Assembly: GCA_036001325.1 (NCBI GenBank)
Contig: DASYUK010000484.1
Span: forward strand, 1 to 52,988
Reading direction: 5' to 3'
Source: Thermoanaerobaculia bacterium
Lineage (GTDB): Bacteria > Acidobacteriota > Thermoanaerobaculia > Gp7-AA8
Length of the DNA stretch: 52,988 bases
Shown here: in pieces, positions 76 to 15,041 of the stretch
Layout of the letters: the number at the start of each line of letters is the position of its first letter
Position numbering within the stretch: the stretch's first letter is position 1
Program-made: the position numbers and the translations under genes
Notes under the pieces: model-generated
The model's database searches: none
Seen by the model: only the letters and a program-made list of their open reading frames with translations
Told to the model about the DNA's origin: nothing

Positions 76-1155
76 TTAGTCGCGCGCGATCCATCCGCCG
101 CCGAGACAGAGGTCGTCCTGGTAGAAGACGACGGCCTGGCCGGGGGCGATGGCGCGCAGCTTATGCGCGAATGTGACTCGAGCGCGATCGCCGTCGAGCG
201 GTGTGACCGTCGCGGCAACATCCGCCTGACGCGAACGCACACGCGCCGCGACCTCGATCGGTCCGCGCGGCATTTCGCCGACGATCCAATGGACGCGCTC
301 GGCGATCAGCTCACTCTTCTCCAACGCTGATGCCGGACCGACGGTCACGCGCTTCGTAAACGGATTCACGTCGACGACGTACGTGCGCTCCACGGTTCCA
401 CCGATCTGGAGACCGCGGCGCTGGCCGATCGTGAAGTGGTAATAGCCGTCGTGACGACCGATGACGTTGCCGTCGACATCGACGATCTCGCCGGCGCCTT
501 CGCCAGGGGTGATGCCGGCCTCGCGCTCGACGATCGCCGGATAGCCGTCCCGCTGCGGCACAAAGCAGATCTCGTACGACTCTTTCTTGCGGGCCACCGA
601 CAGTCCGCCCTGCTCCGCGATCGCGCGCACTTCCGGCTTCGTCAGCTCGCCCAGCGGAAACATCGCATCGCGAAGCTGCTGCTGCGTCAGCTCGAAAAGA
701 AAGTACGACTGATCCTTCGCGAGGTCCTTCGCCTTGCGCAGCTCCAGCGTTCCGTTGTGACGCGTGATTCGCGCGTAGTGGCCGGTAGCGATTCGTTCTG
801 CGCCGATCGCCACAGCCTTCTGATGAAACAGATCGAACTTCACGTGCGTGTTGCAGAGGACGCACGGACTGGGAGTTGTCCCGCTGAGATAGGACTGCAC
901 GAACGGCTTGATCACCTTGTCGTGAAAGTTCGCCTCGAGATTGAGCGTGAAATGCGGGATGCCGAGCTTCCACGCCACCTGCTTCGCGTCGGCGAGGTCG
1001 TCGATGGTGCAGCATCCGCCATACGTCGAGTCCGCGGTCTTGAGGTTGTCGTACATCTGCATCGACAGACCGATGACCTCGTGTCCGGCGGACTTGAGCA
1101 TGTACGCGGCCGTCGAAGAATCGACGCCGCCCGACATCGCCACTGCAATCTTCAC
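76..1155 (-). CDS. mnmA: tRNA-specific 2-thiouridylase MnmA
   Basis: PP-loop AMSGGVDS, PCVLCN, IATGHYA, KDQSYFL, ESYEICF, TIGQRRGL and PGQAVVFY motifs. Start set at GTG 1155 (MKIAVAM); the ORF track TTG at 1167 is an alternative. Confidence 0.97.
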   Translation of the reverse strand: MKIAVAMSGGVDSSTAAYMLKSAGHEVIGLSMQMYDNLKTADSTYGGCCTIDDLADAKQVAWKLGIPHFTLNLEANFHDKVIKPFVQSYLSGTTPSPCVLCNTHVKFDLFHQKAVAIGAERIATGHYARITRHNGTLELRKAKDLAKDQSYFLFELTQQQLRDAMFPLGELTKPEVRAIAEQGGLSVARKKESYEICFVPQRDGYPAIVEREAGITPGEGAGEIVDVDGNVIGRHDGYYHFTIGQRRGLQIGGTVERTYVVDVNPFTKRVTVGPASALEKSELIAERVHWIVGEMPRGPIEVAARVRSRQADVAATVTPLDGDRARVTFAHKLRAIAPGQAVVFYQDDLCLGGGWIARD

Positions 1156-6920: not shown

Positions 6921-8359
<1,439 letters not shown>

Positions 8360-9117: not shown

Positions 9118-9951
9118 ATGAAAAGAAACGTGATGGGCGGTGTGGCGGCGCTCCTGCTGACGGGGCATGCGGCCTTTGCGGCGGTTCAATACGAATACTT
9201 CCAGACGAGCCGGTCTGAACTTCAGGATGAGAAGTCGTCGGACTTCAATGCGCGCGCCGTGATCGATGGCTCGCGCTCGCGCGTCGAGTTCATCTCCGGT
9301 AATACCTATCCGCCGGGAACCTATGTCATCTCGACCGACGCCGCTCGCAAACTGTTGTTCGTCGATCCGACGCAGAAGACCTACACCGAAGTGAACAGCC
9401 TCGCCATCGCCAGCGCGGTCGGCACGAGCAACATCACCATCGGCGACCTCTTGTCGTCGGTGACGAAGCTGGACGATGCGAAAGTCATCGCCGGGATCCC
9501 CACGGATCACTACCGGCTGACGATGACCTACAACATCACGATCAATTTCCGGAACATGGCGCTCAAACAGTCGGTGCGGACGACGATCGACAAGTGGACG
9601 ACCGTGCGCTTTGGCGACGCGGCCGAGGCGGCGTTCTCGAACACCATCCAGACCGGCAACGCCAAGGTCGATGAATTAATCGCTGCAGAGACGACGAAGA
9701 TCAGAGGATTCCCGCTTCGGCAGACCATTCAAGTGGTGACCATCAACGAGACGGGACCGCAACCGGTCGGGACGAAACTGGCGCTCCCCGCTTCGCGCAC
9801 GATGAGCCGCGAGATGACCGTCACGGCCATCGGCGAAGCCAAAGCAGATGATTCGCTGTTCAGGATTCCCGCCGAGTATCGCAAGATCGATTTCGCCGAT
9901 CAGATCAACAAATCGCAGACCCAGGTCTTGACACCACCGTCGAATCAATGA
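9118..9951 (+). CDS. Exported protein, DUF4412-like
   Basis: Signal peptide; DPTQKTY and KVIAGIPTDHY patterns and a C-terminal LFRIPAEY resemble DUF4412 proteins; coupled to the next gene by an ATGA overlap. Confidence 0.6.
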   Translation: MKRNVMGGVAALLLTGHAAFAAVQYEYFQTSRSELQDEKSSDFNARAVIDGSRSRVEFISGNTYPPGTYVISTDAARKLLFVDPTQKTYTEVNSLAIASAVGTSNITIGDLLSSVTKLDDAKVIAGIPTDHYRLTMTYNITINFRNMALKQSVRTTIDKWTTVRFGDAAEAAFSNTIQTGNAKVDELIAAETTKIRGFPLRQTIQVVTINETGPQPVGTKLALPASRTMSREMTVTAIGEAKADDSLFRIPAEYRKIDFADQINKSQTQVLTPPSNQ

Positions 9952-11267
9952 AACGCCAGGGCGATCTCCGGCGTGAAGCGAGGCGGAAGCGGCGAACCAT
10001 TGTTGCCGCTGCTCTTCCGATCGCCATCCCACTGATCCTCGCCGCGGTCGCGATCGAGCCGTCATCGGCCCCGACGATCATGCGCGCATCGACCGTTGCG
10101 CCGTCGCTTCGATATGCCGATCTCGGTCCGCAGCGCGGCAGCGAACTGCCGCAGCATTCGGTGATCCTCACCATTGAAGAGGATGACACGCTCGACGACG
10201 TGCTCGTCGCGGGCGGATTGTCGCGGCGCGACAGCGCGCTTCTGACCATCGACTTCGGCCGTTCCATCGATCTCCGGCGGATCCGCCCTGGTAATCTCCT
10301 GCGCTTCCATTACGGGGAGCGCGGCGATGTCGACGCCGTGCAGTTGCGCGTGACCGGTTGGGGATCGGTCGACGCCGAGCGCCGCGATCACGGCACGTTC
10401 ATCGTCACTCCGCGCCCGGCGCGCCAGCTCTCGATCAACACGATCGTCTCGGCCGAGATCGATTCATCGCTCTACGAGGCGCTTCGCAACGCGGGTGAAC
10501 AGCCCCAGCTCGTGCAGCAGCTCGTCGACATTTTTCAATGGGACATCGATTTCTTCTCGCTGCAAAAACGCGACTCCTTCAGCGTCGTCGTACAGAAAAA
10601 GTTCTCGGGCCCCGATCTCGTCGGCTACGGACCGGTGTTGGCGGCCCGATTCATTCATGAGGGCAACACTTACGAAGCGTTCCGGCACGAGCTTCCCAAC
10701 GGCACGGCCGGCTACTACGCGCGCAACGCCACGCCGCTCCGCAAGCAATTCCTCAAAGCGCCACTGCAGTTCACGCGGATCACCTCGGGCTTCTCGAAGC
10801 GCCGCTTTCATCCCGTGCTCCACTACTTCAGGCCGCATCATGGCGTCGATTACGGCGCGCCCGTGGGAACGCCGGTGATGACGACCGCTGATGGCGTGGT
10901 CATTCAGACCGGCTACAGCCGCAGCGAGGGAAACTTCATCCGCATCCGTCACACGTCGCGCATCGAGACGATGTATCTGCACCTCTCGCGATTCGCGAAA
11001 ACGATTCGTCGCGGTGCACGCGTCACGCAGGGCAATGTGATCGGCTACGTCGGCGCAACGGGTCTCGTGACAGGACCGCATCTCGACTATCGCGTCAGCG
11101 ACGGCGGCAAATGGCTCGATCCGTTGAAGCTGAAGTCGATTACTCCCGATCCATTGCACGGCGAATCGCTTCACCGTTATAAAAACAGTGTCGCCGCGCT
11201 ACTTCCGCGACTATCATCCGGACCGCAGCAGCTCGCGCAGATGCATAAACGCCGGGCGCTGTTTTAG
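9948..11267 (+). CDS. M23 family metallopeptidase (MepM-like)
   Basis: N-terminal TM anchor; RITSGF, RPHHGVDYGAPVGTPV, YLHLS and TGPHLDYR motifs. Confidence 0.92.
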   Translation: MKRQGDLRREARRKRRTIVAAALPIAIPLILAAVAIEPSSAPTIMRASTVAPSLRYADLGPQRGSELPQHSVILTIEEDDTLDDVLVAGGLSRRDSALLTIDFGRSIDLRRIRPGNLLRFHYGERGDVDAVQLRVTGWGSVDAERRDHGTFIVTPRPARQLSINTIVSAEIDSSLYEALRNAGEQPQLVQQLVDIFQWDIDFFSLQKRDSFSVVVQKKFSGPDLVGYGPVLAARFIHEGNTYEAFRHELPNGTAGYYARNATPLRKQFLKAPLQFTRITSGFSKRRFHPVLHYFRPHHGVDYGAPVGTPVMTTADGVVIQTGYSRSEGNFIRIRHTSRIETMYLHLSRFAKTIRRGARVTQGNVIGYVGATGLVTGPHLDYRVSDGGKWLDPLKLKSITPDPLHGESLHRYKNSVAALLPRLSSGPQQLAQMHKRRALF

Positions 11268-11284: not shown

Positions 11285-13156
11285 ATGAACAAAGTCATCG
11301 TCCGGGCTCCGGTGCGCGCCGATCTCGCCGGAGGCACTCTCGACCTTTGGCCGCTGTATCTCTTCCATCCCGGCTCGCGGACGGTCAACGTCGCGGTCTC
11401 ACACTACGCGGAGTGCGAGGTTGCCGAGACCGGCGACGGCGCGATCGAGATTCACCTCACCGATCAGCAGTATCGCCAACGATACGAATCGATGCAGGAG
11501 CTTTCGGCGGATCCGAAAGCAGCGTTGATCTATCGGCTCGTCGAGCACTTCCATCTCAACGGGCTCTCCATCACCACTCGCACCGACGCTCCGCGCGGCT
11601 CGGGCCTCGGCGGTTCATCGGCGCTGAGCATCACGCTGGTGCGCGCTCTGTCGGAGCTGGCCGGCGCACCGCTGGACGGAGAAGATCTCATCTTTCTCGT
11701 CCGCGACCTCGAGACCCGGCTCCTCGGCGTCCCCGCTGGAATTCAGGATTATTACCCGCCGGTCTTCGGCGGTCTGGCCTCGCTGCGACTCGAGCCGGGC
11801 GCGCCGAAGCGACATCCGATCGGCATCCCGATTACCGATCTCGCGGCGCACATGCTGCTGCATTACAGCGGCGTCGCCCATTTCTCAGGCACGAACAACT
11901 GGGAGATGTACAAGCGCCAGATCGAAGGCAAGAAGAAAGTGCAGCGCGGATTCGACCGGATCGCGCAGACGTCGATCGACATGGAGAAGGCGCTCGAAGC
12001 GGGCGACTTCAAGAAGGCCGGAAAAGCGCTGGCGAAGGAGTGGGAACAGCGCAAAGTGCTGATCGCCGGCATCTCGACGCCGGAGATCGATGCGGCGATC
12101 GATGTCGCTCTCACCGCGGGGGCGTGGGGCGGGAAGGTGTGCGGGGCGGGGGGCGGGGGATGCATCGTCTTTCTCTTTCCGCCCGAGCAGCGTGACGCGA
12201 TCGTGCAGGCGCTCGGCACTGTCCCGGGTCGCGTTCTCGATGCAGTGCCGGTTGCGCACGGCCTCACGATCCAGCGTGGCGATGAAGCGCAAGCTGCCAT
12301 CACAACCGCTCGCGGGCGCGCGCCCGTCGCGCATCGCGATGGAGAGGTCGAGCAGCTCTATGTTCACAGCGATCGCGGCGAGTACAAGCCGTTCATCCTC
12401 GCTGAGGCTGTGGTGACGCACGTGGATGGCCGGAGTGGCACGCATCACAGCGTCGTCCGATCGTACGCGGCGCCAATCGAAGACATCGACGGCCGCGTGT
12501 TGTGGCATCTGGCGCGCGTCGTCGATCCGAATCGACTCGATCTGCGCACGGTACGCGATCCGGTGCGGCGAGTGGCCTCGAGCATCCGCGCGGAGACAGT
12601 CGTGCAGAGCGCGATGGAGTCGGAGGAATCGTTCCGTACGTTCCTCGAAGAGAACGAGCGGTTGCGCATCTTTCACGATCCGGCGTTCGCGTTGTACTCC
12701 GAGCCCGGCGAATCACGCGAGGCATTTCTGGAGCGTTGTACGGAGGAGGCGAATCGGCGCCTGGCCGTGGAGACCGAGCGGCTGGAGAGCACGTTCCGAC
12801 GTCGCATCGATCAGCTCCGCGAAAAGTCCGAGCGCGAACAGCGCGAGCGCGTCAAGGGCGACGAGACTCCGGCCGATCGCGCCGCGCAGGATGTGAACGT
12901 CGCCTGGGGTCAGGCGCTCTACAACATCACCAGCGGACGGCCGGCGGCCGTCGCGGAAGCGACACAATCCGCGCGCGAGGTCGACTATCTCGAGAACATC
13001 GCCCAGGTGCAGCGCGCCTGGGACAAGGAGCTGCAGGCGATCCGTGACGATCTGATGGCGAAGGCGAGTGAAGTCGAAGAGATTTCCATCGTGCCGTCGC
13101 CGAAGAACATCGAGATCACGCGATACCTCGTGCTGTGGGCGGGCGCGCAACCGTAG
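11285..13156 (+). CDS. GHMP kinase (heptose-7-phosphate kinase/HddA-like) with ~290 aa C-terminal extension
   Basis: RAPVRADLAGG, PRGSGLGGSS, GIQDYY and GGKVCGAGGGG motifs in the first ~330 aa; the reading frame stays open into an unrelated helical domain. Confidence 0.88.
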   Translation: MNKVIVRAPVRADLAGGTLDLWPLYLFHPGSRTVNVAVSHYAECEVAETGDGAIEIHLTDQQYRQRYESMQELSADPKAALIYRLVEHFHLNGLSITTRTDAPRGSGLGGSSALSITLVRALSELAGAPLDGEDLIFLVRDLETRLLGVPAGIQDYYPPVFGGLASLRLEPGAPKRHPIGIPITDLAAHMLLHYSGVAHFSGTNNWEMYKRQIEGKKKVQRGFDRIAQTSIDMEKALEAGDFKKAGKALAKEWEQRKVLIAGISTPEIDAAIDVALTAGAWGGKVCGAGGGGCIVFLFPPEQRDAIVQALGTVPGRVLDAVPVAHGLTIQRGDEAQAAITTARGRAPVAHRDGEVEQLYVHSDRGEYKPFILAEAVVTHVDGRSGTHHSVVRSYAAPIEDIDGRVLWHLARVVDPNRLDLRTVRDPVRRVASSIRAETVVQSAMESEESFRTFLEENERLRIFHDPAFALYSEPGESREAFLERCTEEANRRLAVETERLESTFRRRIDQLREKSEREQRERVKGDETPADRAAQDVNVAWGQALYNITSGRPAAVAEATQSAREVDYLENIAQVQRAWDKELQAIRDDLMAKASEVEEISIVPSPKNIEITRYLVLWAGAQP

Positions 13157-13215: not shown

Positions 13216-13292
13216 CGGGCAGTAGCGCAGCCTGGTAGCGTACCTGAATGGGGTTCAGGTGGTCGCGGGTTCAAATCCCGCCTGCCCGACCA
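13216..13292 (+). tRNA. tRNA-Pro (GGG)
   Basis: Acceptor stem CGGGCAG/CTGCCCG, D arm TAGCGCAGCCTGGTAGCG, anticodon stem CCTGA/TCAGG with loop ATGGGGT, GGTTCAAATCC T arm, encoded CCA. Confidence 0.96.
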
Positions 13293-13621: not shown

Positions 13622-13700
13622 TAACAGGTCGTGGGTCGTAGGTGCCGTGGGCCTCAGCGCCATAAGGCCCCCGGTACCTACGACCTACGACCTACGACCC
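13622..13700. repeat. Palindromic intergenic repeat with tandem heptamer arms (family A)
   Basis: GGTCGTG/GGTCGTA left arm and ACCTACG x3 right arm. Shares 18-nt and 26-nt exact blocks with 28772-28864. Confidence 0.88.
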
Positions 13701-13703
13701 AAC

Positions 13704-15041
13704 ATGGCACGTATCAAAATCATTGGCGCCGGCTTGGCCGGATCCGAGTGCGCATTCCAACTCGCGCGCAATGGCCACGCGGTCGATCTGTTCGAGATGC
13801 GGCCGGTGAAGATGACTCCGGCACATCACACATCGAACCTCGCGGAGCTGGTGTGTTCGAACTCGTTCCGCTCATCCGCAATCACCAACGCCGTCGGACT
13901 GCTGAAACACGAGATGTCGCTCCTCGGATCGCTCGTCATCCGCTGCGCGGAAGAAGCGCGCGTTCCGGCGGGTGATGCGTTTGCGGTCGACCGTGAACGC
14001 TTTGCCGCGACCGTCACACAGACGATCGCGACCCAAAGTGGCATCACGACTCGCCGCGAAGAAGTGGCCTCACTCGATCGCGACGGCTACGACTTCATCG
14101 TCGTGGCCACGGGACCGCTGACATCACAGCCGCTGTTCGAGACGATCAACGACTTTCTCGGGCGCGACGGTCTGTATTTCTACGACGCCATCGCGCCCAT
14201 TCTCGCCGCCGACTCGCTGGACATGTCGAAGCTGTACTGGAAGTCGCGCTACGGAAAAGGCTCCGGCACCGACTATCTGAACGCTCCGATGAATCGCGAG
14301 CAATACGAGGCGTTCGTCAACGCATTGCTCGGCGCCGAGCTCTATCCGTTACACGACTTCGAGAACGCTGTGCACTTCGAAGGTTGCCTGCCGATCGAAG
14401 AAATCGCGAGCCGCGGCATCGATACGCTGCGCTTCGGTCCGATGAAACCGGTCGGCCTCGAGCATCCCGTGAGCGGCGAACGTCCCTACGCCGTCGTGCA
14501 GCTTCGCAAGGAAGATCTCTCCGACGAGTACTTGAACATCGTCGGCTTCCAGACGAAGATGAAAGTTCCCGAGCAAAAGCGCGTCATTCAGACGATCCCC
14601 GGTCTCGAGAACTGCACCTTTACGCGCTTTGGATCGATGCACCGCAACACCTTCATCAACGGACCGCGTCATCTCACGCCGGCATTTCAGACGAAGCGCG
14701 ACCCGCACATTTTCTTCGCCGGTCAGGTGACCGGTGTCGAAGGCTACGTCGAGTCGGCAGCCGTCGGTCTTCTCGTGGCGCGGTACATCGATGAGATGGC
14801 CAGCGGTGAATCGCCCAAGCCGCTGCCTTATCACACCGCGCTTGGCGCCCTCGGTCGTCATGTCGCCGAGTCCTCGCCCGATCGTTATCAACCATCCAAC
14901 GTCACCTGGGCGCTGATCGAAGACGCGATCGGAAAAGTAAAAAAGAGCGAGAAACGCGACAAGCAGGTCAAGCTGGCGATCGAGACCGTTGGCGCGCTCA
15001 GCGGCGCGATCCCACGACAGCACGCAACTGCCGCATCTTGA
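13704..15041 (+). CDS. trmFO: Methylenetetrahydrofolate--tRNA-(uracil-5-)-methyltransferase TrmFO
   Basis: IIGAGLAGSE, AELVCSNSF, FYDAIAP, FEGCLPIE, FGPMKPVGL, VQLRKE, FGSMHRNTF and AGQVTGVEGYVES motifs. Start ATG 13704. Confidence 0.96.
   Translation: MARIKIIGAGLAGSECAFQLARNGHAVDLFEMRPVKMTPAHHTSNLAELVCSNSFRSSAITNAVGLLKHEMSLLGSLVIRCAEEARVPAGDAFAVDRERFAATVTQTIATQSGITTRREEVASLDRDGYDFIVVATGPLTSQPLFETINDFLGRDGLYFYDAIAPILAADSLDMSKLYWKSRYGKGSGTDYLNAPMNREQYEAFVNALLGAELYPLHDFENAVHFEGCLPIEEIASRGIDTLRFGPMKPVGLEHPVSGERPYAVVQLRKEDLSDEYLNIVGFQTKMKVPEQKRVIQTIPGLENCTFTRFGSMHRNTFINGPRHLTPAFQTKRDPHIFFAGQVTGVEGYVESAAVGLLVARYIDEMASGESPKPLPYHTALGALGRHVAESSPDRYQPSNVTWALIEDAIGKVKKSEKRDKQVKLAIETVGALSGAIPRQHATAAS

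Follow-up and report, generated by a model that had tools for sequence, protein, structure and literature searches.

The sugar kinases of the HddA/WcbL type (solved structures 3k85, 4usk/4ut4 and 4n3o) are single-domain proteins of 342-357 aa, and HddA is linked to genes of the GmhA, GmhB and HddC type. We analyzed a related kinase gene in a 52,988-nucleotide stretch of DNA (the window), positions 1 to 52,988 of contig DASYUK010000484.1 from a Thermoanaerobaculia bacterium of the phylum Acidobacteriota (assembly GCA_036001325.1). The gene is a single uninterrupted open reading frame (ORF) of 623 aa at positions 11285-13156 (+), as given by the ORF listing and its translation, and it encodes a kinase module (residues 1 to ~332), a linker (~333-355) and a conserved tail (356-623). 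Residues 4-319 share the fold and the motif set of the HddA/WcbL kinases, but the fused protein bears an extension of ~290 aa, and among the locus neighbours checked its gene has no operon of the kind to which HddA belongs.

The original prediction, made from the DNA letters without database searches, had described a kinase followed by an extra domain and had placed the frame of this domain at 12280-13156. These positions correspond to residues ~332-623, i.e. to the linker and the tail together, and the strings that were quoted all lie in frame (VAHGLTIQRG at residues 323-332, YKPFILAEAVV at 367-377, and EEISIVPSPKNIEITRYLVLW ending at 618). That the kinase fold ends near VAHGLTIQRG and that ~290 aa follow it were both borne out: the solved heptose kinases stop at the start of the linker (~330), and ~290 in-frame residues lie beyond that point. 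Full-length homologues, on which the prediction had made its case depend, were present in independent genomes, with the same frame in 14 separately assembled genomes.

A search with residues 335-623 as the query returned 505 matching proteins. Almost all of the best 120 of these 505 were GHMP fusions of 614-633 aa on Thermoanaerobaculia contigs (NCBI, JGI, ENA and Logan), and the remaining sequences among the best 120 were shorter and probably partial. In all, more than 100 full-length fused proteins came from independent metagenome contigs. In a scan of reference genomes from the class, the stop-to-stop frame that contains the kinase measured 623-803 aa in 13 of the 14 sampled genomes of the window's family (f1) and in the single genome of the sister family (f2), G107, for which the presence of kinase and tail in one frame was verified base by base. 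Such a long ORF might be an artefact, in which a lost stop, a frameshift or a chimeric contig joined a kinase gene to the gene downstream of it. This explanation has virtually no chance of being correct, and the comparative data already refute it: the fused frame recurs in the 14 genomes and the more than 100 proteins above, the linker sequence varies yet never holds a stop, and the window's genome has no tail-only gene elsewhere. Because the identical fused frame occurs in 14 separately assembled genomes, a lost stop or a misjoin at the fusion junction itself appears very unlikely.

Across 112 full-length homologues, the mean frequency of the majority residue was 0.84 in the kinase, 0.71-0.82 in the tail and 0.55 in the linker (335-360), and the difference between tail and linker argues that the tail is under selection. 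In the sister family (G107; locus L033, G107:C47, 8874-10703) the kinase was 58% and the tail 31% identical to that of the window. Once fused, the tail has thus changed far more rapidly than the kinase.

Relatives of the tail were sought among 1.84 billion cluster representatives with a profile built from 18 tails (alignment A2), at E <=0.001. The search returned 737 cluster representatives, which fell into three architectures. Only a handful of the 737 were GHMP fusions, and the matches covered positions ~7-275 of the 278 in the profile. The long architecture comprises proteins of 760-860 aa with the tail homology in the last ~270 residues (E 4e-17 to 1e-9); near residue 42 these proteins bear the Walker A motif GMTGSGKT, their N-terminal parts match Pfam DUF87/HerA_C/TrwB, and in NCBIfam and PADLOC they weakly match HerA, CedB and TraD. 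The short architecture consists of proteins of ~280-300 aa that begin with Met and contain the tail domain alone. Many of the matches of intermediate length were fragments of the long ATPases, and a second ORF of 284 aa beside one of the standalone genes (P0154) was checked as a possible paralogue of the domain and rejected.

Comparison by hhalign aligned the kinase tails with the HerA tails (99.95%, E 1.4e-38, 268 columns) and with the standalone proteins (100%, E 1.7e-41, 270 columns); overall, these comparisons gave E values of 1e-38 to 1e-54 over 268-280 columns, for sets that had themselves been chosen by the tail profile. Single proteins were also sufficient to find the window's tail. 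The HerA-like protein P0148 matched it by itself (26% identity, E 7e-16), and three standalone proteins matched it pairwise in tblastn (E 1e-15 to 1e-17). The profile search, hhalign and P0148 thus agree with the original prediction, which had likened the tail to the non-catalytic C-terminal part of DUF87/HerA-like proteins. In the phylogeny, though, the nearest relatives of the tail are the free-standing proteins of ~290 aa and not the HerA tails. The 623-aa protein had no DUF87, HerA_C or AAA match in Pfam or NCBIfam and no G-x-x-G-x-G-K-T motif, and it is not a member of the HerA family, because only the accessory C-terminal domain is held in common. A HerA-like ATPase of this family is absent from the window's genome.

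No PADLOC defence model matched the fusion, the tail or the standalone proteins, and the HerA-like relatives gave only weak PADLOC matches (generic HerA, mad8), which came through the ATPase part. A role in a defence system was considered and rejected, as it had no support from PADLOC and the HerA-like genes had no conserved partner genes. The titles and abstracts listed for YjgR, DUF853 and HerA-like ATPases suggested nothing of relevance to the tail domain.

The phylogeny of 87 near-full-length domains, calculated with FastTree with Shimodaira-Hasegawa (SH)-like support, placed all kinase tails in one clade (0.90) with the true standalone proteins as the sister clade (0.92); the two were joined with a support of 0.965 and the HerA tails fell outside. 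On this tree, the fused tail is derived from a lineage of free-standing proteins. The domain occurred in 63 of the 401 sampled genomes of the phylum. Only the window's family (8 of 8 genomes in the 401-genome set) and the sister family had the fusion, while the other families of the class had the HerA-like version or none and other classes had the standalone version, the HerA-like version or both. The window's genome contained one copy of the domain only. The simplest history for these sequences would be that kinase and tail were fused once, in a common ancestor from which both sister families of Thermoanaerobaculia descend. An M23 peptidase gene followed by the kinase gene was the order in every fused locus examined (f1 and f2), and the same order was found beside the non-fused orthologue of family f6 (G119), which indicates that the pairing of the two genes predates the fusion. 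We regard the domain boundaries, the reality and the age of the fusion, the homology of the tail, its phylogenetic origin and the synteny as established almost beyond doubt.

The kinase module was recognized in Pfam by GHMP_kinases_N (PF00288, residues 83-163, 58.1 bits against a cut-off of 22.3) and GHMP_kinases_C (PF08544, residues 233-310, 58.4 bits against a cut-off of 21), and the scan of the 623-aa protein gave nothing credible past residue 310. Residues 4-319 aligned end to end with the solved 342-357-aa heptose kinases 3k85, 4usk (WcbL) and 4n3o, with E values ranging from 8.5e-48 for 3k85, the closest solved relative, to 7.7e-35. Motif II (PRGSGLGGSSA, residues 103-113) was invariant in 48 homologues and the glycine-rich motif III (KVCGAGGGG, residues 284-292) was conserved; these two motifs, RAPVRADLAGGTLD and GIQDYYPPVFGG were all invariant or nearly so in the 48 sequences. 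The kinase is likely to be catalytically intact, and its chemistry is probably the ATP-dependent phosphorylation of a sugar hydroxyl, as in HddA/WcbL.

The label of a heptose-phosphate-type kinase, which the original prediction had used, stood as far as the fold relatives are concerned. As a name for the substrate it did not: the HddA model NF049969 ranked first in NCBIfam with 145.8 bits, far short of its cut-off of 600. Other genes seem to cover the heptose-kinase roles of the genome, so the name HddA is not justified by transfer. A second GHMP kinase (G000:C440:12445-18656 = L037:4445-10656), ~30% identical to the fused one, lies in an operon with transaldolase-like, flavin amine-oxidase-like, GT2 glycosyltransferase, nucleotidyltransferase and epimerase/dehydratase genes, and a GmhA-like gene is found on the same contig ~2 kb beyond the epimerase gene. 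This operon is probably the GDP-heptose-type pathway of the genome. In addition, an RfaE-type kinase in the window's genome adjoins a GT9 heptosyltransferase. The locus of the fused kinase contains no sugar-nucleotide genes. The fused kinase is therefore best described as a third sugar-kinase paralogue and not as the canonical HddA. Other families of the class have orthologues of the kinase that lack the fusion, with 34-47% identity and frames of ~340-400 aa.

The tail itself had no match in Pfam, NCBIfam, PADLOC or the PDB sequences. The best PDB sequence match was a CdvB/Vps2-like ESCRT-III protein (E 0.044, in the helical region), which was treated as coiled-coil bias. The AlphaFold2 (AF2) model of the tail alone (alignment A2) had a mean predicted local distance difference test score (pLDDT) of 77 and a predicted template modelling score (pTM) of 0.64. 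In this model, strands at tail positions 11-15, 22-36, 41-53, 115-120, 253-257 and 264-274 form, together with short helices, an alpha/beta base that is built from both ends of the domain, and helices at tail positions 133-180, 186-205 and 218-250 form a long hairpin that makes up ~40% of the domain. The hairpin (residues 478-594) is highly charged, with 24 D+E and 21 K+R in 117 residues. Foldseek with the tail model gave no usable match in PDB and BFVD (best E ~0.02, TM score <=0.23).

The model of the full-length protein, which was built on a shallow alignment (48 sequences, >=65% identity), had a pTM of 0.43, and residues 321-353 had a pLDDT below 50. Because of this low linker pLDDT, and because the pTM was 0.43 for the full-length protein and 0.64 for the tail alone, the models fit a protein whose two modules fold independently and are joined by a flexible tether of ~25-30 residues. 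The original prediction had also offered oligomerisation, or docking to a membrane or a partner, as possible roles of the tail. A role in docking or assembly would agree with the evidence. For docking through a transmembrane segment we found no support, the maximum 19-residue Kyte-Doolittle mean in the tail being 0.57, and a transmembrane-helix anchor was rejected on this hydropathy.

Eight positions only had the same majority residue in all four clades of the domain family (P369, W407, L454, S472, E476, F481, R484 and W618), and P369, W407, S472, E476, F481, R484 and W618 are all present in the window protein. C485 was conserved only in the kinase tails and in standalone proteins of the P0142 type. 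A further set was restricted to the kinase clade: R505, W541, Q543, I548 and S550 were conserved in 100%, and W579 in 88%, of the 8 kinase-clade sequences in the cross-clade alignment, and all six were invariant in the 48 closer homologues (alignment A1), while none was conserved in the other clades. The segment at the tip of the hairpin (~526-565) was largely below a pLDDT of 50 in both models; a tip that is invariant yet predicted to be unstructured would be typical of a partner-binding surface.

We propose that the product is a cytoplasmic protein of two modules, in which a GHMP kinase of the HddA/WcbL type would be followed, on a flexible linker, by an autonomous domain of ~270 residues. 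The fusion would have joined a domain of the standalone lineage to a kinase gene whose pairing with the M23 cell-wall peptidase gene was older than the fusion. The tail would be non-catalytic and would act in docking or assembly, bringing the enzyme to which it is attached (the kinase here, a ring ATPase elsewhere) to a partner or into an oligomer, with the hairpin-tip motif of the kinase clade (541-553) as the likely contact surface. We read the tail as non-catalytic because the eight positions common to all clades are mostly P, W, F or L, and because a domain that is ~40% hairpin works with two unrelated enzymes and alone. We give a docking or assembly function about an even chance, and consider the explanation as a whole, which blends it with the observed parts, to be moderately probable.

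Several points weigh against this proposal. Docking or oligomerisation is an inference, and the shallow alignment of the full-length model makes its low pTM compatible with an intramolecular interface. The polar trio S472/E476/R484 and C485 could be a ligand site or an active site. A known fold could also have been missed by Foldseek against PDB and BFVD, since the hairpin dominates the alignment. Finally, in the loci examined, the HerA-like and standalone members had no common neighbour that would point to one partner.

Some of the same observations bear on the alternative that the tail acts within the molecule as a regulator or sensor, binding a small ligand that would switch the kinase on or off. 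The fusion is permanent, the tail comes close to the kinase in its conservation and contains the conserved polar loop YS-PGES-F-RC, and the motifs that are invariant only in the kinase clade suggest co-adaptation with the kinase. We consider this alternative unlikely, as AlphaFold gave no confident arrangement of the two domains (pTM 0.43, disordered linker), the same domain occurs alone and on an unrelated ATPase, and Foldseek against PDB and BFVD matched no known ligand-binding fold. The tail could instead be a second enzyme, which would make the product a bifunctional sugar-activating protein like HldE or Fkp. Bifunctional sugar kinases are established and Fkp was among the family and PDB matches. 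The fusion locus, with the neighbours LolA, DUF4412, M23, tRNA-Pro, DUF3467 and TrmFO, has no nucleotidyltransferase of its own. A second enzyme is nevertheless highly improbable: the tail had no similarity to nucleotidyltransferases, phosphatases or other enzyme families in Pfam, NCBIfam, PDB and Foldseek, its few invariant polar residues form no recognisable catalytic constellation, and ~40% of a domain that is also found on a motor ATPase is a helical hairpin. Docking or assembly remains the function that we prefer.

The neighbourhoods of the relatives hint at a link of the standalone proteins to tRNA or ribosome biology. In ~10 of 20 acidobacterial loci (L042:1723-3728, L043, L044, L048, L052, L053 and L057-L060, with overlapping stop and start in L042), a gene of the P0142 type was immediately followed by mnmA in the same orientation, usually with an extracytoplasmic function (ECF) sigma gene on the side opposite mnmA. 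Genes of the P0154 type followed a pair of RDD and NFACT (RqcH-like) genes in three genomes (L002:5163-8855, L041:3692-7876 and L054:7808-11728). The HerA-like members had no conserved neighbours among the loci examined. We also considered the standalone proteins as anti-sigma factors of the adjacent ECF sigma and rejected this: several loci have the sigma gene in a divergent or convergent orientation, the linkage to mnmA is constant, and the N-termini of the standalone proteins had no anti-sigma signature by eye, no profile test being run.

These neighbourhoods favour a further reading, in which the tail is a tRNA, ribosome or nucleic-acid module that links the kinase to the machinery of translation or tRNA modification. 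One standalone clade adjoins the gene of a tRNA 2-thiouridylase (mnmA) and the other follows an RqcH-like gene, the third architecture belongs to the HerA/FtsK-type motors, which often work on nucleic acids, and the window itself has mnmA, tgt, trmFO and tRNA-Pro within 12 kb. On the other side, the kinase tails and the standalone proteins have a mean pI of 5.2-5.7 and a net charge of ~-10 to -12, and such acidity is unusual for direct RNA binding, and no RNA-binding fold or family was matched in Pfam, the PDB sequences or Foldseek. The fusion gene is 10 kb from mnmA and not adjacent to it, no NFACT homologue was detected in the window's genome, and the mnmA neighbourhood could be gene order inherited within one phylum. 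We therefore think it improbable that the tail acts in this way. A broader version, which we hold to be quite unlikely, is that the whole family is a shared address domain that brings the HerA motor, the GHMP kinase or itself to one target in tRNA modification or ribosome rescue. If this were true, the kinase would phosphorylate something on or near that machinery and not a free sugar for the envelope.

The features of the locus are listed in Table 1 in their order in the window, from the group on the minus strand to the co-directional cluster that contains the fusion gene on the plus strand.

Table 1. Genes of the window around the fusion gene, and the parts of the fusion gene, in order of position
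Feature	Position	Strand	Basis or remark
mnmA	79-1152	-	
malic enzyme/PTA		-	
secF		-	
secD		-	
tgt	7223-8359	-	
lolA		-	
DUF4412-like gene, first of the co-directional cluster	9118..9951	+	Pfam DUF4412, weak (22.3 bits, cut-off 21.6)
M23 metallopeptidase with Csd3_N2 domain, upstream neighbour of the kinase	9948..11267	+	Pfam Peptidase_M23 3.3e-27, Csd3_N2 2e-11
GHMP sugar-kinase domain, HddA/WcbL-like, residues 1-332	11285..12280	+	Pfam PF00288 and PF08544; solved relatives
Variable linker, residues ~333-355	12281..12349	+	Lowest conservation (0.55); pLDDT <50 for 321-353 in the full-length model
Tail domain, residues 356-623 and stop codon: alpha/beta base with long helical hairpin	12350..13156	+	AF2 model; homologues
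Loop L-Y-S-x-P-G-E-S-x-x-x-F-x-x-R-C, conserved across the family, residues 470-485, at the entry to the long helix	12692..12739	+	Conservation
Helical hairpin, residues 478-594 (predicted helices 478-525, 531-550 and 563-594)	12716..13066	+	DSSP, both AF2 models
Hairpin-tip motif W-G-Q-x-L-Y-N-I-T-S-G-R-P, residues 541-553	12905..12943	+	Positions invariant only in the kinase-fused clade
tRNA-Pro(GGG), 60 nt downstream of the fusion gene, end of the cluster	13216..13292	+	ARAGORN
DUF3467 gene		+	
trmFO	13647-15041	+	

Within the cluster, the stop of the DUF4412-like gene overlaps the start of the M23 gene by 4 bases, and 17 nt separate the M23 gene from the start of the kinase. The DUF4412-like gene was also found upstream of the M23 and kinase genes in four other fusion-bearing genomes. 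At the locus of the non-fused orthologue (L032, G119:C57, 8826-12715), genes for an ECF sigma factor, a redoxin, the M23 peptidase, the kinase and a PEGA-domain protein lie on one strand, so that an ECF sigma gene again stands near this gene set. The proximity of three tRNA-modification genes (mnmA, tgt and trmFO) and tRNA-Pro to the fusion gene (within ~12 kb) may, in view of the linkage of the standalone relatives to mnmA, be a coincidence or a remnant of an older gene order. Downstream, the ORF of trmFO (+) and an ORF of 611 aa for an AAA-ATPase (-) are convergent and overlap by 44 bases at 14998-15041, and one of the two ends may be over-extended.

The value of these results lies in annotation, and the current understanding is not overturned. 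They delimit an unnamed domain family that is still to be defined, with at least 737 cluster representatives, three architectures and no entry in Pfam, NCBIfam, PADLOC or PDB. Its members are at present labelled 'hypothetical protein', 'ATP-binding protein' or, misleadingly, 'heptose-7-phosphate kinase', and the fused protein in particular should not be called HddA by transfer. A clean fusion of single origin, in a family whose module is found on a kinase, on a HerA-type motor or free, suggests a portable role in docking or assembly.

Among the known systems, Fkp (fucokinase/GDP-fucose pyrophosphorylase) and HldE set a precedent for the permanent fusion of a sugar kinase with a second module, and Fkp has a GHMP domain whose relationship to the kinase described here can be detected. 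Their partner is a recognisable nucleotidyltransferase, whereas the tail has no enzymatic signature or fold match. From the HddA of other genomes the fused kinase differs further in that it co-exists with another HddA-like kinase, which does sit in a GmhA/HddC-type operon. The HerA-like proteins (e.g. P0148, P0152, P0211 and P0249) are homologous to the entire tail in their C-terminal ~270 residues, which follow a low-complexity linker rich in Ala and Pro, much as a flexible linker precedes the tail in the window protein. They have an N-terminal P-loop ring-ATPase module that the window protein lacks, their tails are ~20-26% identical to that of the window and fall outside the clade of kinase tails and standalone proteins, and they occur also outside the Acidobacteriota, e.g. 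in Chloroflexota. The standalone acidobacterial proteins of the P0142 and P0154 types are unfused, lie in other conserved neighbourhoods and do not have the hairpin-tip motif W541-P553. In these proteins, however, the tail domain makes up the whole protein and is similarly acidic, and those of the P0142 type have C485 in common with the kinase tails.

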